Part shown: positions 2,202 through 38,019 of the stretch, one piece after another
How positions within the stretch are numbered: the first letter of the stretch is position 1
Layout: the number at the start of each line of letters is the position of its first letter
Made by a program: the position numbers and the translations under genes
The notes under the pieces: generated by a model
Databases searched by the model: none
What the model was told of the DNA's origin: nothing
Seen by the model: only the letters and a program-made list of their open reading frames with translations
Source: Escherichia phage Ec_Makalu_003
Sequence record: MN882349.1
Length of the DNA: 64,000 nucleotides
Direction: 5' to 3' (one strand)

Positions 2202-4064
2202 TTACATGTGCTTAACGCGGTTTACCATCTCGGAGTGTTTCCCGTGGTTGAATGGACGCAGGTCAACAGATCCAAGATATCCACTAACGCGACGGATAAC
2301 ATTCATCTTTTCAAGATTGTCATTGCCACAATCAGGGCAAACAAAACCAGACTCGGTCGCTCTCATTTCCTTAGTAGATCCGCATACATGACATACATCA
2401 GAAGGAGTATTAACACCGAAGTAGTGCAATTTATCCATTGCATAGTCTACTACAGTTTCAAGCCCTTTAATGTTGTTTTTCATGTCCGGGAACTCAACAT
2501 AAGAGATCATACCACCAGACGCCAGCCAGTGATAGTCTTTCTCAAAGTCTATTTTCTCAAACGGTGTAACTTTCCGGTCTACGTCAATGTGGAATGAGTT
2601 GGTGTACCAGTCTTTATCGGTAGCACCCTTAACAATACCAAATTGCTCTCGGTCCAGTCGATTAAATCGATAACAAAGGCTCTCGGCTGGCGTGCCGTAA
2701 AGACTAAACCCAAGTCCGGTTTCGTCCTTCCATTTTTCAGTATAATGACGCAGGATTTTAAGAATATGTTTACCGTATCGCTGCGCATCTTCCGAATCAA
2801 ACGGATGAACACCAAACAGGACGCTCAACACTTCATGTAAACCAATATACCCAAGAGAGATACTAGCGCGACCATCTTTCAGCACTTCCAAAATTTCATC
2901 GTTTTGATGAATACGGAAAAATGCACCTTCGGTATACAGTACAGGAGCAACATTGGCTTTAGCCCCTTTTAAAGCGTCTACGCGACTCATGAGCGCATCA
3001 AAGCAAATAGGCAGACGATTAGCTAGCTCTTGTTCGAATAGCTCAATTCTGCGCATTACAGACGCTTTACCAGCACGACGCGCGGCAATAAGTGCAATAC
3101 GCGGAAGATTCAGAGTCACAACACCTAAGTTATTACGTCCGTCTAATACTTCTTCGCCTTTCTCATTATGCCACACACCCAGGAAGCTACGACAACCCAT
3201 CGGGCTAACCGGAACACTAGATCCAGTGATACTACGGTTATTCTTCGCAGAGATATAATCAGGGTAAAGACGCTTACTAGAACATTCCAATGCAAGTTGC
3301 TTAATGTCGTAGTTCGGATCTTCCGGTTTAAGGTTTAATCCTTCTTCTAAGAACATCACCAGCTTAGGAAACACCGGAGTTATACCATCTTTACCTAAAC
3401 CTTTAGTTCGAACTTTCAGGATCGCTTTCTGAATCAGTTTTTCTTCCCAGCTAGTACCCATACCAAAGGTTAAAGTCACAAAAGGTGTTTGACCGTTGGT
3501 AGAGAACAAAGTGTTGATCTCATATTCCAACGCCTGATATCCGTCTAGTGTTTCTTTTTCTGTCTTCTCTTGTGCATAGAGAGTATTAGCTTTGATTCCG
3601 TAGGTTTCGGCATCAGCAAGGTGTTTATGATATGTTTTCTTAACATACGGTGCTAACACCTGATCGATGTTTGCTATGGTAGTTCCGCCATATTGATGAC
3701 TTGCCACCTGTGCGATAATTTGAGCTGTTACAGCACATGCAACACCGATCGATTTAGGACTTTCGATTTGTGCGCTACCCAATTTAAAACCATTCTCTAA
3801 CATGTCTTTGAGATTAACAAGACAGCAGTTAGTAAACGGCATAGCGGGTGCATAATCCATATCATGATAATGAATATCACCGTCTACATGCGCTTTATAG
3901 ATGTGCTCAGGTAACACGGTTTTAGCAATCTGTTTAGACACAGCACCAGCAATCAGATCTCGACGTGTCGGGAATGTTCGCGCGTCTTTGTTCGCGTTCT
4001 CTTTGCTTACTTCGTTTTCTTTACCCGTTGCGATCTCTGTAATGTCTTTGATTAGTTTTTCCAT
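2202..4064 (-). CDS. nrdD: anaerobic ribonucleoside-triphosphate reductase (class III RNR)
   Basis: 620 aa; C-terminal glycyl-radical motif 'RVSGYLG' and Zn-ribbon 'CHVCGS..CPDCG'; uninterrupted, no intron. Confidence 0.95.
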   Translation of the reverse strand: MEKLIKDITEIATGKENEVSKENANKDARTFPTRRDLIAGAVSKQIAKTVLPEHIYKAHVDGDIHYHDMDYAPAMPFTNCCLVNLKDMLENGFKLGSAQIESPKSIGVACAVTAQIIAQVASHQYGGTTIANIDQVLAPYVKKTYHKHLADAETYGIKANTLYAQEKTEKETLDGYQALEYEINTLFSTNGQTPFVTLTFGMGTSWEEKLIQKAILKVRTKGLGKDGITPVFPKLVMFLEEGLNLKPEDPNYDIKQLALECSSKRLYPDYISAKNNRSITGSSVPVSPMGCRSFLGVWHNEKGEEVLDGRNNLGVVTLNLPRIALIAARRAGKASVMRRIELFEQELANRLPICFDALMSRVDALKGAKANVAPVLYTEGAFFRIHQNDEILEVLKDGRASISLGYIGLHEVLSVLFGVHPFDSEDAQRYGKHILKILRHYTEKWKDETGLGFSLYGTPAESLCYRFNRLDREQFGIVKGATDKDWYTNSFHIDVDRKVTPFEKIDFEKDYHWLASGGMISYVEFPDMKNNIKGLETVVDYAMDKLHYFGVNTPSDVCHVCGSTKEMRATESGFVCPDCGNDNLEKMNVIRRVSGYLGSVDLRPFNHGKHSEMVNRVKHM

Positions 4065-4065
4065 T

Positions 4066-4090
4066 GTATCACCTATGAAAAAGCGGGATT
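4066..4090 (-). terminator. hairpin/terminator between upstream gene and nrdD
   Basis: AGCGGGA-TTTTC-TCCCGCT hairpin followed by U-run on minus strand. Confidence 0.45.
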
Positions 4091-4109
4091 TTCTCCCGCT
4101 CGTTGATAG

Positions 4110-4604
4110 TTATTTTACCAGTTCTGCTAATTCTTTTTCTTTAGCTTCCAGTTCAGCCTTAAGCTGTTTAATCTCTTGTCGCTTCTTATTAGCGGCTTCC
4201 TGCTTACTATTTCGGATAATCTGATCTAGATACAACTCCCAATCCTGAATATTTTTGATAATATAACCGTCAACATTAATTGGTCGGATATTTAGTACAG
4301 CTTCCAGTTTAGTCGCAAAGACTTTAATTGCTGGGGTGAAGTATTCATATTCGTTATCTTCAAACCAATAACCTAGACTTGCATTATCAATACGAAGACG
4401 AAGTTCAAGATCAAGGTCTTTATCTTCGGTGTATAGGTCTTTTACACCCCCCATCGAACCAACAACAACTTTAAAACGAATTTTATCAACACCACCAAAC
4501 ACATCAGTAAGGATACCAGCAATTGAACTATTAGCGCAAGATTGGTCGCTGAATGCGTCAAGGTTTTCTTTAGTTACAGTATACCAAACATCTTGTACCC
4601 ACAT
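4110..4604 (-). CDS. hypothetical protein with C-terminal coiled coil
   Basis: 164-aa ORF; C-terminal K/E-rich heptad-like tail; promoter cassette upstream. Confidence 0.55.
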   Translation of the reverse strand: MWVQDVWYTVTKENLDAFSDQSCANSSIAGILTDVFGGVDKIRFKVVVGSMGGVKDLYTEDKDLDLELRLRIDNASLGYWFEDNEYEYFTPAIKVFATKLEAVLNIRPINVDGYIIKNIQDWELYLDQIIRNSKQEAANKKRQEIKQLKAELEAKEKELAELVK

Positions 4605-4662
4605 AATATAATCCTCTCGTTGTTAAGTGGGAGTATTATAGCATACTCCCTTCGCATGTCAA
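4605..4662 (-). promoter_or_regulatory. early promoter/stem-loop cassette copy C
   Basis: minus strand TTGACA-N16-TATAAT; palindrome GGGAGTA..TACTCCC encloses the -10. Confidence 0.6.
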
Positions 4663-5837
4663 GCACGAACTTTTTTCTTTACTGCTTTCACCTTCTGGCG
4701 AATTGCTCGAATCTCTTCGATCTCTTTTTCAGTCTCTTTAACAATTTCTTTGCGATTCTGAATATCTGTATCGAGATTATCATCAAGTTTAGGCAGCATG
4801 TCAATCAAGAACTTTTTAAAGTCTTTCAGGTTTCGGATAACCGCACCTTCACCCATTACCGCCACCCCTACACCATCCGGCAGATCACCAAACAGCTTAA
4901 CCAGTTCAGATAGATGATCATGATCCTCTAGTGCTTCTTCCGGTTCAGATGGCAGTTCAACAAAGTTATAACGTTCATCATTGCTGATCAGATGATACCA
5001 GCAAAGCCCGAAAGATTTAGGAGTATATTCTACACCATCAACTTCAACCGCGTCAACACTTCCGAAAGGATCTACTTTAGTTACCTTAAATCCATGTTCC
5101 AGCTTTTGAACAATTTCAATAACATGGCTGGATACGGTTTCAGTGTTAAACCAATGAGGCAAATTATGCTGATTTGGCTTGTAGCGTTCGCCTACTTTAA
5201 ATCGCTGACCTTCCGCTTGCATAGAATGAAATTGATGGTTGGTGATTTCCGCGAAGTATTCAAATTCGCCACCGTCAAACACACAAGCCCATTGATCACA
5301 AAAACGATCTGCCTTAACGGTTTCACCTTTCGCGGTGATCATGGTAGCTGATCCGTGCAATTCTTCTTCAACCAAAAAGCCATATTCGACAAAATCAGCA
5401 AGTTTCATGGCTTCTTTGTGTTCTGGGTCATGCTCTCCCCAGAATCGCTTAAATTCTTGCAAACCTTCTGGGGTAAACGAATAACATTTACCTTTTTCAA
5501 AGTAAGTCGGCATTGCATCCTCTTTCTTGTTCATCGCTTCGTATGCCTCTTTTGAGATACGTTTAAAGTATTTGCGCTCATTGTGCATAATCATAGTAGA
5601 CCAATAATAAACGATATCCTCAGCGGAATAAACTACATCTCCAGCTTCAATAGTAATAACATGACCGTGGTCATCTTTTTCTAATACTTTAAAGCCCTTT
5701 TCTACGATTTCAGCAACTCGAATATGACCACGGCGCGAAGCATCGGTCAGAATAATTGAATAGCGAGAAAAGTCTAGAAACTCATCTTTACCGCCTTCAC
5801 GGAATGCATAGTAATGACCTTCAAAGAATTTAGCCAT
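4659..5837 (-). CDS. hypothetical protein, paralog family member (two repeated domains)
   Basis: 392 aa; shares the 'GFKVL..NERKYFKRI(S/T)K' domain with the 5901..6479 and 6488..6748 products. Confidence 0.6.
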   Translation of the reverse strand: MAKFFEGHYYAFREGGKDEFLDFSRYSIILTDASRRGHIRVAEIVEKGFKVLEKDDHGHVITIEAGDVVYSAEDIVYYWSTMIMHNERKYFKRISKEAYEAMNKKEDAMPTYFEKGKCYSFTPEGLQEFKRFWGEHDPEHKEAMKLADFVEYGFLVEEELHGSATMITAKGETVKADRFCDQWACVFDGGEFEYFAEITNHQFHSMQAEGQRFKVGERYKPNQHNLPHWFNTETVSSHVIEIVQKLEHGFKVTKVDPFGSVDAVEVDGVEYTPKSFGLCWYHLISNDERYNFVELPSEPEEALEDHDHLSELVKLFGDLPDGVGVAVMGEGAVIRNLKDFKKFLIDMLPKLDDNLDTDIQNRKEIVKETEKEIEEIRAIRQKVKAVKKKVRA

Positions 5838-31795: not shown

Positions 31796-32269
31796 CTATT
31801 TGTTAAGCCCTTTAAAGCCAAATACTTTCTTTAATGCATGTTCGGTTATGATCTTAAACTCCATGTTATGCTTTTGGCATAATTTCACGGCAGCTAACCA
31901 TTTTTCAGTATTTTTTGTGTACGTCCATACTTCATGCATATACCGTTGCTTTGTCTTCGCGGTCATTCTTTTTGGCTTTTCCGGTGGCCTTGTCTCTTTA
32001 GCTGGTTTAACTTCCCATAAATGCTCCTTGCCATCATCAAACTTAACGTAAAAATCCATAAAGTATCTGTGTCTTTTTCCATCTGTTGATGACTCATAAG
32101 GAATTACTACGGTCTCAGATCCCCATTTTGCAACTCTAGGATTGCGGTCTAGCCACTGCATGATCCATCTTTCCCAGCTTGAACGGTATGTGATTTTCCG
32201 TATATCCCCTTTATACTTTTCCTTATTCTCAGGAACATACTTGCCCTTATAAGTGTTAGATCCTCCCAT
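31796..32269 (-). CDS. 4: head completion protein gp4
   Basis: 157 aa; canonical position divergent from gene 53. Confidence 0.8.
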   Translation of the reverse strand: MGGSNTYKGKYVPENKEKYKGDIRKITYRSSWERWIMQWLDRNPRVAKWGSETVVIPYESSTDGKRHRYFMDFYVKFDDGKEHLWEVKPAKETRPPEKPKRMTAKTKQRYMHEVWTYTKNTEKWLAAVKLCQKHNMEFKIITEHALKKVFGFKGLNK

Positions 32270-32284
32270 TTTAGCACCCTTTAT

Positions 32285-32292
32285 TATAAATA
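32285..32292 (+). promoter_or_regulatory. late promoter (TATAAATA) for gene 53 operon
   Basis: exact TATAAATA about 33 nt upstream of the gene 53 ATG. Confidence 0.6.
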
Positions 32293-32324: not shown

Positions 32325-32879
32325 ATGCTCTTTTCTTTCTTCCCTGCCATAGAATACAACGGCAAGATGATTACTGACATTGTGCGCAATTACCGCGCAT
32401 ATTTCAACGCAATAATTTCTGATTATAACATACAAACATATTACATTCAAGGTAGTCCACGACCGGAACAAGTTGCATATGAAGTATACGGAAACCAGCA
32501 ACTTTATTGGATCTTGCTGATGCTTAATGACGTATACGATCCGTTTCATGACTGGATCACCGATCAAGAGACAGCATATGAATCAGCCGAACAACGATAT
32601 GCAAATGTAGGAGGAAATCAAGTATTATATCACGTTGATATTGACGGAAACAAGTATTGGAATCTTACCGAATATCCGAAAGGGTCAAGCAATTGGTACG
32701 ACAAAGGGGATATTCATCACCGTCATTTGCAGTTTCATGGTGCACTGTCGGCTGTAGACACACTGGAAGATGCGATCCTCCGCAATGAGGAACGACGCAA
32801 GATCAAGATCATAGATCCTACACAAATTAAACAATTTATTAACGCATTCATTCGAGAAATGGAAAAGGCTGATGTGTAA
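32325..32879 (+). CDS. 53: baseplate wedge protein gp53
   Basis: 184 aa; position before gene 5. Confidence 0.8.
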   Translation: MLFSFFPAIEYNGKMITDIVRNYRAYFNAIISDYNIQTYYIQGSPRPEQVAYEVYGNQQLYWILLMLNDVYDPFHDWITDQETAYESAEQRYANVGGNQVLYHVDIDGNKYWNLTEYPKGSSNWYDKGDIHHRHLQFHGALSAVDTLEDAILRNEERRKIKIIDPTQIKQFINAFIREMEKADV

Positions 32880-32890
32880 GGTGATTAATT

Positions 32891-34690
32891 ATGCTAATGT
32901 TTAATAACTCCGTTAAATGGTTTACCGGAATTGTGGAAAATAGGGAAGACCCGTTAATGTTAGGCCGAGTTCAGGTCAGGATTCATGGTATACATCCTTC
33001 GCTATCCGCACACGGTGACATTCAAGGTCTTCCAACCGAAGATCTATTATGGATTACGCCAGTACAAGATATTACAAGCGCGGCGATCTCCGGTATAGGT
33101 CAAAGCCCTACTGGTATTGTTGAAGGTTCAATGGTATTTGGTTTGGCCTTAGATGAACGTTATTTAAACTGCGTTATTCTGGGTACTATTGCCGGACAAT
33201 ATACAGAGAAACCACTCACTACAGAAGGTTTTTGCGACCCTTCTGGTGCATACCCGCGCTATATTGGTAATGATGTTAATATTCTTGCCCGTGGCGGTAT
33301 TAACCCAGAAACCGGACAAACAACAAAACCTGATAGTGTCTATATTCGAGATGAAAACACTGGAGTTGCAGTAAATCCAGACGACGAGCCATTAGATCAA
33401 ATTCCGGTTGATGATAATCCTGATTTTACAATAGAAAAAATGCTGCGGGGAGATGAGGGATATCGCGAGAAATGGTATCTTGATTCAGAAGGATACCCGA
33501 CAATAGGCATCGGGCATTTGATCATTTATAAGAAAACCAGTGATCTGGGTATTATCAATAATGAACTTTCTAAGCTGGTAGGGCGTGAAGTTACAAACGG
33601 AAGACTTACCGCCGAAGAAGTTAGTAAGGTATTTGCTGACGATATAGAAAAAACTCGTCGTGATATGCGCAAACATCCACGAATTGCACCTGTCTATAAT
33701 AAATGTAATGCTTCTCGTCGTATGGCATTAGAAAATATGGCGTTTCAAATGGGTGTTGGTGGATTGGGTAAATTTAAGAATAGTCTTGCTGCGATGTTAG
33801 CGGAAGAATGGAAACAAGCCTATGATGGATTACGTCAATCAGTATGGGCTAATCAAACTCCGGGACGCTCCAGCCGTGTTTCTAAAATTATTCTTACTGG
33901 CAACTTAGAATCCTATGGCGTAATTGCTCCTAAGAAAGAGGAATCTGTTTCCGATGATCCGCGAGCACGTTTGAGAAATGCCCGTATTGCTGCCTATAAG
34001 ACGCAGAGAGCAGAAGAAGACCCAGAAGCACCGTTTACCCCACAAGACACACGAATCATGTTTAAAGAGCCTAAGAGTTCGTATTCTGCAAGGTATCCAT
34101 ATAACCATGTGTACGAATCAGAGAGCGGTCATATTATCGAGATTGATGATACTCCTTCTCATGAGCGTTATCATCGCAAACATCCTTCTGGTACATTTGA
34201 AGAAACCAGACCGGACGGAACGAGGGTAGAAAAGATTGAAGGCGATGATTATTTGATCGTTAAGCAAGGCCGCAAAGTCAACGTTAAGGGAAATCTGCAA
34301 GTTGTTGTTGAAGGTGACGCGCAAGTTTATTATATGGGTAATGTGATGCAAACCGTTGATGGTAACGTCACTGAATTTATTCGTGGTAATGTTAATCAAA
34401 CCGTTGAAGGTACAGCTAATATGCATGTTGTAGGTGATGTTACCGCACAACTTGACGCTAATTTGACGGCTAACGTCAAGGGTAATGCTGAATTAATGAT
34501 CGAGGGTAACACTACCGAGACAATTAAAGGAAACTATGATTTAACCGTTGAAGGTAATTTTAATATGACCGTCAATGGCACTAAATCAGATCAGGTTAAT
34601 GGTGACTGGTCCCGTAATTGTGGTGCAAGCGTTAAAGATATTGCATCGGGTACAGTTAAAATTGATGGTAGCCGTATTGATCTTGGGTGA
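32891..34690 (+). CDS. 5: baseplate hub + tail lysozyme gp5
   Basis: 599 aa; central lysozyme domain 'YLDSEGYPTIGIGHLI'; C-terminal VxGxxxxx beta-helix repeats. Confidence 0.9.
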   Translation: MLMFNNSVKWFTGIVENREDPLMLGRVQVRIHGIHPSLSAHGDIQGLPTEDLLWITPVQDITSAAISGIGQSPTGIVEGSMVFGLALDERYLNCVILGTIAGQYTEKPLTTEGFCDPSGAYPRYIGNDVNILARGGINPETGQTTKPDSVYIRDENTGVAVNPDDEPLDQIPVDDNPDFTIEKMLRGDEGYREKWYLDSEGYPTIGIGHLIIYKKTSDLGIINNELSKLVGREVTNGRLTAEEVSKVFADDIEKTRRDMRKHPRIAPVYNKCNASRRMALENMAFQMGVGGLGKFKNSLAAMLAEEWKQAYDGLRQSVWANQTPGRSSRVSKIILTGNLESYGVIAPKKEESVSDDPRARLRNARIAAYKTQRAEEDPEAPFTPQDTRIMFKEPKSSYSARYPYNHVYESESGHIIEIDDTPSHERYHRKHPSGTFEETRPDGTRVEKIEGDDYLIVKQGRKVNVKGNLQVVVEGDAQVYYMGNVMQTVDGNVTEFIRGNVNQTVEGTANMHVVGDVTAQLDANLTANVKGNAELMIEGNTTETIKGNYDLTVEGNFNMTVNGTKSDQVNGDWSRNCGASVKDIASGTVKIDGSRIDLG

Positions 34691-34695
34691 GGTAA

Positions 34696-35268
34696 TTGAT
34701 GGTTGAAATTCTTCCTATGAGTTCAAAATTGGAGGATATCAGCGAGCGAGAAATCTTTGAGGTGGTGTTCTCTTATAAGGCAACGCCACCTGATGAAAAT
34801 ACCACATACACGATTAAAGAGTTTAAGATCAGCGAGTATCGCCCTAATAAGGGCGTTACCGTTGAAGAAACTAAAATATCTGGTGAGTATCGGGATAGTT
34901 TTTCGCTTGGCGCGGATTCTCTTAAATATATAACGAAAGATCGAATTAAAAAATCTGCCGGAAGTTTTGATGATTTACCAGATCCAACTACAGCAGATCT
35001 ATATTATTTTAACGCTCCTACACGTCTACAGGAGGTTTATACTTATAAAGTAACCCTAACCTATATCCAATCTGTTTCAGAGTCTTCTGGTGGTTCAGGT
35101 GAAGGAAATAGTGGTGGTTCTAACAGTCGAGAGGGTGCTGGTGAAACTAATCCGCCTCCGGTAGTAACCGAACACACAATAGAGAAAGTTTATACTCAAA
35201 CTGTTTTTGGAAATTGGGATGTGTGGAGTAAACAGTTAAGAGATTATGTTAGAAGAAGTGAGGGATAA
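34696..35268 (+). CDS. hypothetical protein in gene 5-6 interval (T4 5.1 position)
   Basis: 190 aa; Ser/Gly-rich linker. Confidence 0.6.
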   Translation: MMVEILPMSSKLEDISEREIFEVVFSYKATPPDENTTYTIKEFKISEYRPNKGVTVEETKISGEYRDSFSLGADSLKYITKDRIKKSAGSFDDLPDPTTADLYYFNAPTRLQEVYTYKVTLTYIQSVSESSGGSGEGNSGGSNSREGAGETNPPPVVTEHTIEKVYTQTVFGNWDVWSKQLRDYVRRSEG

Positions 35269-35269
35269 T

Positions 35270-35809
35270 ATGATTGAAGTAATTCATTACACCAAAGAAG
35301 ATGAAATTTTATATAATAGACTACATGAACTATTTTATGAAGTTGATGGAAAGGTTTATAGAAGGTTCTCTCGTGGGCGTTCTAAAGCAGGAAGTCTAGT
35401 TGGTGGATTGAAGATAAATCCGTGTGGATATAGATATTGGAGACTTGCTGTTGATGGTAAAGAGTTTCAGAGGTCTCATGTTGTTTATCATATGCATCAC
35501 GGACACACTCCAAGAAAACCACTACAAATAGATCATATTAACACAAACTCCCTTGACGACCGAGTTAGCAATTTAAGACCAGCAACCGTTACTCAACAAA
35601 TGTACAACCAAAATAAACAATCCGATTGCACATCTTCATATATTGGTGTTAATTGGAATAAAAACTCCAAAAAATGGGAAGCTAGAATTAGAGTTAATGG
35701 AAAACGAATCCGTTTAGGTCTATTTGATAATGAAATTGACGCTGCGATTGCCTATAACACCGCTGCATTATCTAGAGATTCAAAAGTTAACAAATTAAAC
35801 GATGTATGA
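35270..35809 (+). CDS. free-standing HNH homing endonuclease with AP2 DNA-binding domain
   Basis: HNH motif 'HHGHTPRKPLQIDHINTNSLDDRVSNLR'; AP2-like 'YIGVNWNKNSKKWEARIRVNGKRIRLGLFDNEIDAAIAYNTAA'; AT-rich codon usage; start taken at the Met after GAGGGA RBS (track ORF begins 35246). Confidence 0.8.
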   Translation: MIEVIHYTKEDEILYNRLHELFYEVDGKVYRRFSRGRSKAGSLVGGLKINPCGYRYWRLAVDGKEFQRSHVVYHMHHGHTPRKPLQIDHINTNSLDDRVSNLRPATVTQQMYNQNKQSDCTSSYIGVNWNKNSKKWEARIRVNGKRIRLGLFDNEIDAAIAYNTAALSRDSKVNKLNDV

Positions 35810-35824
35810 ATATGGGGGTGTTTA

Positions 35825-36118
35825 ATGGCTGGATTATCCTACGATAAAGCTAAAACTACAGGGCACGGAAACTACCCACCTACGGTAATTAATGCAACTC
35901 AATCTAAGGTATTTGTTGAGGGTATCCCTGTATTAGTCGAAGGAGACCCAATTACACCACATACAAAAACAACAAAACCTTATGATACACACGGGGGAAC
36001 TACGGTCGCCAGTACCCCGAAAGTATTTGTTACCGGAAAGAAAGCAATTCAAATGGCAGATCGTATTAGCTGTGGCGATACCGTCGCTATGGCATCACCG
36101 AAGGTATTCATAAAATGA
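35825..36118 (+). CDS. 5.4: PAAR-repeat spike-tip protein gp5.4
   Basis: 97 aa; PAAR-type repeats. Confidence 0.8.
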
Positions 36119-38019
36119 CAAAGCAAAAGATTACACAAATTCCTGATATTTTTAATGCTGCTACATTCGATGAAATTAAAAGCGCATTAACCGACTGGAT
36201 GAGAAACCAGGAAGAATTTAAAGATTTTGATTTTAATGGTGCTGGTATTAACGTATTGATGGACTTGCTCGCATATAACACTCTGTATATTCAGCAATTC
36301 GCCAACGCCGCGCTATATGAATCTTTTATCAGAACGGCAATTAAGCGTAGTTCAGTTGTTCAAGCCGCGCAAGATTTAGGATATTTGCCAGCGAGTAAAA
36401 CTAGTGCATCGACTACAATTATGTTGCATGTTTCCCATCCACGAAATCCGGCAAGTATTCGAATCCCACGAGGGACTAAATTTATTGCAAGTGTGGATCG
36501 CCAGACTTCTTACCCATTTGTTACTACAGAAGACGTTGTGAGCGTTTTAGGTTCAAATGGTTTATATACGCCTATGCTTAAAGTCGCACAAGGTCGTATT
36601 GTTCGTACAGAAATGTTATTTGATCCGAAGAAACAAATTCTGATCCGTGACCCTGATATTGACCGCGCTCAGGTTAAATTGTGGGTGGACGGTGCTGAAT
36701 GGAAAGACTGGACACGAGAAAGTATTGTTAATGCAACTGGCGCAAGCAATATTTTCTATATGCGTGAAACCGTAGACGGACATACAGAAATTTTCTTTGG
36801 TGAAGGTGAATCAACCTTATCTGCGGCTGGCGGGGCGCTGGAAGCAAATTATATTGGTGGACTTAAGCCGTCAACTGGCGCTAATATTGTTATCGAATAT
36901 ATCAGCACTAAGGGCGCGGAAGCAAACGGTTCAGTTAATTTCACATACGCGGATACCCTTGCATCTATCTCTATTGTTAAAATTATTGAGAATCCGACAA
37001 ATGATCGTGATTATGTCGGTGCAGATGGTGGTGGTGATCCTGAATCAATCGAACGTATCCGTGAACTTGCTCCGGTAATGCGTGAATCTCAGCGTCGTTG
37101 TGTAACTGCTTCCGACTACGAGGCTTTTGTTTCTAGCCGTTTTGGTAGTATTGTTCAGGCGGTACAATGTTTCACCGACCGAGAGAAACCGGGTTATGCT
37201 TTTGTTGCTGTTAAGCCTAAATCTGGATTGCGCTTGACAACTGTTCAAAAAGAAGATATGCGCGATTATCTGGCAAAATATAATCTTGCCCCTATCACAC
37301 CGAGCATCATTGACCCTAACTATCTGTATATTAAACAGAATATTAAAGTTTCCTATTCAATCAACGACTTGTCAGAATCAGAGCAGTGGTTGCGTGGTGC
37401 GGTCATTGATCAGATTGATGCATATTACACCGACGAAGTGGAAATTTTTAACCAGACCTTTAGTAAGTCTAAAATGCTTGCGCGCATCGACAAAGCTGAT
37501 GTATCTGTGATAGGTTCTAGTGCAGAAATCGAGATGGTGCGAGAGATCGACAACTTCTATAAAGCACCGATGGCTGGAATCAAGTTTTTAAACCAGTATA
37601 AGAGCGGAATCAAGTCTAGTTCATTCAACTTCGAAAAGGACGACAAGCAATATCCGATCCATTATGTAAGTACAGAAATGAACAAAGAATCCGGTTTAGC
37701 TAAATTGCTGGTTGGACCTTTCCCTGTTGGTTCTGCAATCGCTTTACCGCACTATTCCGGCACTGATTTTGATAAAGAGGTTATCGACGGTGCGGACCTA
37801 TACTTTGAGGTTGGAGAGGTTCAGCATTATGACGACCTTATTTCATGGGATCTGGGTAAACTGAATATCAATAGCGATCGCTTTACTGGTTCATATATTG
37901 AGTTGACAGCTAAACCGATTGCTGATAACATCTTTACTAAAGACGGTTCTTTGATCGTGTTTGAAAACGATCTCCGTCCTCAGTACACAACTATTAGTCT
38001 GGAGGCAATTGCTCAATGA
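36115..38019 (+). CDS. 6: baseplate wedge protein gp6
   Basis: 634 aa; canonical order. Confidence 0.85.

Follow-up and report, generated by a model that had tools for sequence, protein, structure and literature searches.

The open reading frame at 35270–35809 of the window (the whole 64,000-nucleotide stretch of Escherichia phage Ec_Makalu_003, MN882349.1, that was analysed) was identified as a free-standing homing endonuclease gene (HEG) of the HNH-AP2 class, carried in a compact 560-bp cassette between genes 5.1 and 5.4. It was concluded, with a probability of roughly 0.75, that the HEG is still active in homing or was so until very recently. The class itself is well known, whereas this member of it is uncharacterised, and we infer its activity, target site and homing. 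The architecture and fold, the insert boundaries, the presence/absence polymorphism, the intact reading frame with its purifying selection and the differing backbones were observed directly.

Gene Structure and Neighbourhood

The following features were located around the HEG:

32285–32292, + strand: T4-type late promoter motif TATAAATA, upstream of gene 53 and the nearest on this strand 5' of the HEG
32325–32879, + strand: gene 53
32891–34690, + strand: gene 5, hub and lysozyme
34696–35268, + strand: gene 5.1 (PHROG_1168, 8.8e-54; RB49 gene 5.1 by annotation)
35260–35264, + strand: Shine-Dalgarno GAGGG of the HEG, 5 nt 5' of its ATG
35270–35809, + strand: HNH-AP2 HEG, 179 aa (ATG at 35270, TGA at 35807–35809)
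35825–36118, + strand: gene 5.4, PAAR spike-tip protein (Pfam PAAR_motif, 2.9e-11), directly downstream of the HEG
36115–38019, + strand: gene 6
38016 onwards, + strand: gene 7

The coordinates of the reading frame agreed exactly with those proposed in an earlier, sequence-only reading of this DNA. An alternative in-frame ATG at 35246 would give a 187-aa version of the protein. The start at 35270 was preferred because of the Shine-Dalgarno sequence ahead of it, the N-termini of the homologues, which align to MIEVIHYT, and the identical choice made by the GenBank annotators. The earlier reading had placed the gene between genes 5 and 5.4. The 5.4 side of this placement held, but on the other side the neighbour was found to be gene 5.1, whose TAA stop (35266–35268) is separated from the ATG of the HEG by 1 nt; the local order on the + strand is thus 53-5-5.1-HEG-5.4-6-7.

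Just upstream of gene 53, an ORF on the opposite strand (31796–32269, −) matched the Pfam Tn7 TnsA-like endonuclease N-terminal domain (4e-21). The same ORF matched a PHROG 'head closure' family (6.1e-61) and is not a mobile element; by its position and family it is presumably the counterpart of the T4 head-completion gene 4.

Transcription of the HEG probably starts at the TATAAATA motif, by co-transcription with the genes in between. No private promoter or terminator of the HEG was found, nor was any promoter-like site present directly upstream of it. In some T4 HEGs the start codon is hidden in an RNA hairpin; such a structure was also considered here and was found unconvincing, since the segment 35215–35310 folded with −13 kcal/mol (z = −1.78) and 8 of 200 shuffles folded as well.

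The codon usage of the HEG had been described as more AT-rich than that of its surroundings. This was confirmed as a modest difference of about 2 sd when the 59 window ORFs of at least 120 aa each were compared. The GC content of the HEG was 0.348 against an ORF mean of 0.413 (sd 0.032), and its GC3 of 0.228 against a mean of 0.376 (sd 0.067) was the lowest of the 59. The lowest GC in the window (0.344) belonged to a 127-aa ORF at 24535–24918 (+), which lies on the strand opposite to its neighbours, has no Pfam or PHROG match and is possibly not a real gene. Low GC3 values were also recorded for the ORFs at 1557–2099 (−) and 4110–4604 (−) (0.254 and 0.273, respectively); they have no Pfam domain, match PHROGs without a known function (14838 and 15067) and do not resemble HNH genes.

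Domain Architecture and Catalytic Residues

Two domains were recognised in the 179-aa protein:

35477–35602, + strand: HNH_3 (His-Me finger) nuclease core, aa 70–111 (Pfam)
35636–35773, + strand: AP2-type DNA-binding domain, aa 123–168 (Pfam, PDB sequence searches and model)

An HNH motif and an AP2-type domain had been suggested from the letters alone, and both were upheld by Pfam, PHROGs, PDB sequence searches and an AlphaFold model. The Pfam match to HNH_3 had an E-value of 2.4e-9 (37.1 bits against a cut-off of 24.8), and the match to AP2 (PF00847) one of 8e-8, with 32.9 bits lying 0.4 under the gathering score of 33.3. The protein matched PHROG_99, 'HNH endonuclease', at 7.6e-46. A direct phmmer search of the PDB matched the AP2 part to plant WRI1 (2.9e-6), and a profile built from 27 homologues reached WRI1 at 8.6e-20, I-HmuI (1u3e) at 1.5e-10 and ERF1 at 1.2e-6.

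The AlphaFold2 model, computed on the homologue alignment, had a mean pLDDT of 91.6. In Foldseek searches of the PDB its N-terminal part corresponded to I-HmuI (1u3e) and its C-terminal part to plant AP2/ERF domains, all with a probability of 1.00. The match of the AP2 part to 1gcc gave a TM score of 0.74 normalised to the target and an rmsd of 2.2. This part was modelled as a three-stranded antiparallel sheet (127–130, 135–142, 145–152) with one helix (155–168). By Pfam, profile and model, the protein combined a match to the HNH_3/I-HmuI-like group 2 family with a beta-beta-alpha-Me fold; His-Me finger group 2 holds I-HmuI together with AP2-bearing homing endonucleases (PMC5714182). The AP2 part agreed with AP2/ERF domains in sequence (Pfam, phmmer, profile) as well as in the modelled fold.

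The residues D88-H89 and N101 were invariant across 25–27 homologues and aligned with D74-H75 and N87 of I-HmuI; N113 was conserved. The position of the I-HmuI metal ligand N96 is taken by Gln110 (codon 35597–35599); in HNN-AP2 proteins this position is known as the 'EN' box (PMC2248197). The 176 closest homologues retrieved gave 130 motif instances, with Asn in 125 and Gln in 5. All five Gln-bearing proteins were full-length and kept the next conserved Asn; of the 130 instances, those with Gln included four other, diverged homologues (P0019, P0021, P0050, P0172). In these alignments Gln at the metal-ligand position appears as a rare but recurrent variant, and its recurrence in four other diverged full-length proteins suggests that it is tolerated. 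Gln110 could still bind metal. As only 5 of the 130 motif instances have Gln, catalytic competence of the HEG is plausible, not assured.

Occupancy of the 5.1/5.4 Junction

The window comes from a T4-type phage of the genus Krischvirus (RB49-like). The 20-kb stretch around the HEG was ~97% identical to the phages MIZ4, SSG23 and kaaroe, and no identical record was found. A comparison of the interval in related phages had been proposed as a check, and it was performed on 58 Krischvirus records matching the 5.1/5.4 junction; two distant phages matched besides. The junction was empty in 45 of the 58, with the 5.1 stop overlapping the 5.4 start (TAATG) at the end of ...GATTATGTACATAGGGGTGTTTAATGGCTGG. 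The same HEG was present at the same junction in six records of five distinct phages besides the window (MIZ4, MIZ5, G37-3, G5211 and KFS-EC, the last with two records), which is a minority of about 10% of the sampled records. These carriers were 98.3% identical to the window at the nucleotide and 98.3–99.4% at the amino acid level, and three short metagenome contigs held the same HEG in the same context. The occurrence of this ORF here in all relatives, which would have spoken against a mobile element, was thus not observed.

A scan of IMG/VR by gp5.4 found only 10 loci, and in all ten gene 5.1 was followed directly by 5.4, at gp5 identities down to 47%. Because these more distant relatives were all empty, the empty junction was taken as ancestral and the HEG as an insertion. 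The gene thus showed the site-specific presence and absence of a free-standing HEG, with no intron or intein.

No copy of the HEG at another site was detected at the DNA level, and no paralogue within the window by tblastn (best E 0.38). The ORF at 994–1539 (−) was rejected as a paralogue, being weakly similar only and having no HNH domain. The closest paralogues (40–42% amino acid identity) were Krischvirus HNH-AP2 genes elsewhere in the genome, namely in the nrdA/nrdB interval, beside the helicase loader (gene 59), beside dam, and in the 5.4/6 interval of Whisky. The last of these, at 2989–3543 of the Whisky locus (L004), is a third HNH-AP2 gene of 184 aa, 42% identical to the HEG. Another hub-region HEG was noticed in a distant T4-like phage (IMGVR_UViG_2974787500_000001, L011), where a 288-aa ORF at 1606–2472 occupies the 5/5.1 interval; it looks GIY-YIG-like and matched PHROG_314 'homing endonuclease' at 5.8e-26.

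The HEG copies of the relatives are publicly deposited and are already labelled 'HNH endonuclease' in GenBank and RefSeq. Some neighbouring annotations deserve a remark. In G37-3 (L016, MK327941) gene 6 is split into two overlapping CDS (3616–5518), a probable frameshift or sequencing error. In KFS-EC (L018) the start of 5.4 (3303–3617) is annotated 21 nt too far upstream, so that it overlaps the HEG, and the metagenome gene caller placed it at the same too-far-upstream position.

Anatomy of the Insertion

The boundaries of the insertion were determined with exact anchor sequences in five occupied and ten empty loci, since the MAFFT alignment misplaced the gap. The following elements were defined:

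35227–35236, + strand: clustered polymorphism, 14–23 bp left of the insertion point
35250–35809, + strand: 560-bp insertion relative to empty-site relatives, from the anchored junction comparison
35810–35824, + strand: 15-bp spacer from the HEG stop to the 5.4 ATG; the former 3' end of 5.1, ACATAGGGGTGTTTA in empty sites

The junction segment was 651 bp long in occupied loci and 91 bp in empty ones. The insert consists of 20 bp, which supply the new C-terminal codons of 5.1, its stop and the Shine-Dalgarno sequence, followed by the 540-bp HEG ORF. Its right end falls exactly on the TGA of the HEG, and the boundaries were identical across carriers. In 5.1, six codons brought by the insert take the place of the final five, changing the terminus from RDYVHRGV* to RDYVRRSEG*. 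The spacer keeps the G-rich ribosome-binding stretch ahead of 5.4 and contains two HEG-linked substitutions, at 35811 and 35814, which were present in all carriers. The 5' sequence of 5.4 in the window was the same as in empty-site phages; altogether, the empty and occupied alleles showed almost no difference besides the insert.

A likeness between the 3' end of the HEG (GATGTATGA-ATATGGGGGTG) and the displaced terminus of 5.1 (GATTATGTACATAGGGGTG) hints at a microhomology-mediated origin. At the clustered polymorphism, AGTAAACAGT was found in all HEG carriers and in about 10 empty-site records, and GCGCAGCAAC in about 35 RB49-type empty-site records. This polymorphism may form part of the recognition site, or it may be a donor haplotype linked to the HEG.

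Selection and Transfer between Backbones

All five distinct HEG orthologues were intact, with pairwise pN/pS values of 0.03–0.27, and the frame was free of stops and frameshifts in five genomes and three metagenome contigs. The HEG is therefore under purifying selection and is not decaying.

The divergence between HEG copies was at most 1.7%. The flanks of the window differed by 3.1–4.8% from those of the other carriers; they were nearest to the HEG-less SSG23, from which the left flank differed by 2.5% and the right flank by 2.0%, the latter by 0.3% over its first 586 bp. The left flank of G37-3 was nearest to the HEG-less MIZ6 (0.6%) and kvi (0.8%). The HEG-linked SNP 35938A was shared by three of the five carriers. 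In all, the HEG was found on at least three backbone types together with the linked SNPs 35811, 35814 and 35938, a pattern that general recombination could also produce. The flank patterns would fit repeated transfer with co-conversion tracts of varying length. Since T4-like phages recombine freely, such diversity of backbones could arise without endonuclease-driven homing. In four of the five carrier types the flanks were identical to those of some empty-site phages (Makalu_002, ECD7, kvi) up to the junction, and for this reason an immunity-conferring flank polymorphism was not demonstrable.

A Second HNH Gene at the Same Junction

Seven of the 58 records broke at the start of 5.4: GEC-3S (two records), G2494, JEP8, W115, Skers and Whisky. 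In the three of these that were inspected, the junction held a different HNH_3 gene, of 246 aa:

1951–2691 of Whisky (L004, MZ504878): 246-aa HNH_3 gene
2695–3435 of GEC-3S (L027): 246-aa HNH_3 gene
2697–3437 of G2494 (L028): 246-aa HNH_3 gene

Like the HEG, this gene belongs to phrog_99 and lies at the same junction in the same orientation; the identity between the two was 30% (BLASTP), and the 246-aa gene has AP2-like C-terminal repeats. Unlike the HEG, it was inserted ~30 bp more to the right, within the very beginning of 5.4, with duplication of ATGGCTGG, and its start is preceded by a GC-rich hairpin of its own and a late-promoter-like CATAAATA. The 5' end of 5.4 beside it is recoded: 16 of the first 72 nt differ, most of them at third codon positions. 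With the further HEGs in the 5.4/6 interval of Whisky and the 5/5.1 interval of L011, the hub tip is evidently a preferred region for the insertion of HEGs.

In KFS-EC and the three metagenome contigs (L029–L031), the HEG of the window was joined to a recoded 5.4 start that was otherwise seen only beside the 246-aa gene. In KFS-EC (L018, NC_055757) the recoded tract at about 3311–3400 corresponds to 35818–35885 of the window; about 17–21 substitutions in 70 bp, mostly at third positions, were counted in these loci. Loci of this type could be recombinants of the two junction arrangements, or could hold an immunity tract. A comparison with the divergent relative L008 pointed to no donor of the recoded tract, as L008 was equally distant from both versions of 5.4.

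These observations may be combined into one tentative scheme, which we consider possible but doubtful. Homing elements would compete for the junction, which would exist in three allelic forms: empty, with the 179-aa HNH-AP2 gene, or with the 246-aa HNH gene. The recoded first ~23 codons of 5.4 would be an immunity tract marking the target of the 246-aa enzyme, and KFS-EC-type phages would be doubly immune recombinants. The HEG itself would be an active natural 'H-N-Q' variant, its AP2 domain reading the GC-rich RB49-type TGGGCGCAGC about 20 bp left of the junction.

Proposed Mechanism and Alternative Explanations

It was proposed that the HEG would share the transcript of the late baseplate operon, starting at the promoter 5' of gene 53, and would be translated from its own Shine-Dalgarno sequence just past the 5.1 stop. 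The AP2 domain would then bind a specific sequence at or beside the uninterrupted 5.1/5.4 junction of a co-infecting HEG-less relative, and the I-HmuI-like His-Me finger would nick or cut close to the bound sequence. Repair templated on the carrier genome would copy the cassette, with a variable length of flank, into the recipient (intronless homing). The carrier would be protected by the splitting of the junction, by the linked substitutions at 35227–35236 and 35811/35814, or by both. The interpretation of such genes as selfish mobile elements, offered by the sequence-only reading, was supported by the patchy occupancy, the HNH-AP2 architecture, the intact copies, the purifying selection and the differing flanks, from which we infer homing.

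A catalytically dead or weakened remnant would explain part of the same data. The cassette would have arrived once, by homing or illegitimate recombination, and would now move only by general T4-like recombination, hitch-hiking between essential baseplate genes. Gln in place of the metal-ligand Asn, the low frequency among Krischvirus records (6/58), the missing private promoter and the reported degeneration of HNN-AP2 genes once inserted (PMC2248197) are all compatible with such a history. However, the full-length frame in five orthologues and three metagenome copies, its low pN/pS, the intact general-base His, structural Asn and N113, and the four other diverged full-length homologues with Gln argue against it, and a remnant was judged unlikely. 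Still less probable is co-option by the phage, in which the protein, no longer purely selfish, would serve as a weapon against competing relatives, including carriers of the 246-aa HNH gene, or as an AP2-type late-gene regulator. The two HNH genes are alternative alleles at one junction with a hybrid of both in KFS-EC, the HEG is under purifying selection, and cases in which HEG domains were recruited for conflicts between phages are known (PMC10448857); yet ordinary homing with marker exclusion gives the same patterns, and most relatives do well without the HEG. A pure regulator is unlikely, because the nuclease motif is retained.

HNH endonucleases that assist the terminase in packaging, as in HK97-like phages, are generally known from some siphoviruses (mentioned in PMC5714182). 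Such a role was effectively refuted for the HEG, as the gene is dispensable in 45 of 58 relatives; most phages that are otherwise near-identical lack it and package normally. The subfamily is also the wrong one (HNH_3/I-HmuI-like with AP2 rather than the terminase-associated HNH group), and the gene lies in the baseplate cluster, not beside the terminase. An element that homes, or did so very recently, was thus retained as the preferred explanation.

The significance of these results lies mostly in annotation: a standard selfish element was confirmed and the assignment of its neighbour was corrected. Only two points are mildly unusual, namely the junction with three states and a naturally occurring hybrid, and the presence of Gln in place of the metal-ligand Asn, which offers a testable natural variant of the HNH motif. 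One junction between two essential baseplate genes, with two HNH alleles and a hybrid, would be convenient for studies of competition between homing elements. The near-identity of the empty and occupied alleles besides the insert may also interest specialists in homing endonucleases; T4-family HNH-AP2 enzymes seem to be without a mapped target.

Comparison with Known Systems

No paper on the HEG itself or on the Krischvirus 5.1/5.4 junction was found, and the literature searched yielded no cleavage or homing experiment on this protein or a close relative and apparently no mapped cleavage site for phage HNH-AP2 enzymes. HNH-AP2 genes are a recognised class of free-standing HEGs of T4-related phages (PMC1524935; PMC2993671, Table 5). 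The first to note such genes were Magnani et al. 2004, as cited in PMC1524935 and PMC2993671; they were tabulated for RB49, JSE, RB43 and RB16 (PMC2993671, Table 5); others were described in Xanthomonas phages (PMC2248197) and in ICP1 (PMC10448857). Members of the phage class (RB49ORF040c and those of JSE, RB43, RB16, Xp10/OP1/Xop411 and T5) share with the HEG an N-terminal HNH_3 and a C-terminal AP2 domain, a length of about 160–190 aa, a free-standing position between phage genes and a patchy distribution. The HEG differs from the known class in its 5.1/5.4 site, in its identity of at most 42% to any paralogue and in its 'EN' box, which reads QQ.

I-HmuI of the Bacillus phage SPO1 (PDB 1u3e) has the same nuclease core fold (97 aligned columns, Foldseek probability 1.00). 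It is intron-encoded, unlike the HEG, and binds DNA through NUMOD/helix-turn-helix modules instead of AP2; its metal ligand is N96, where the HEG has Gln110. I-HmuI nicks one strand.

Experiments have demonstrated intronless homing for the T4 genes of SegF, SegG and MobE (Belle et al. 2002; Liu et al. 2003; Wilson and Edgell 2009; as cited in PMC2993671). MobE is an HNH enzyme like the HEG, whereas the Seg proteins are GIY-YIG enzymes, and the Mob proteins belong to a different HNH group with zinc-finger-type regions in place of AP2. All three genes resemble the HEG in being inserted between conserved genes and absent from close relatives. They spread by cleaving the HEG-less allele with co-conversion of the flanks, as would be expected of the HEG.
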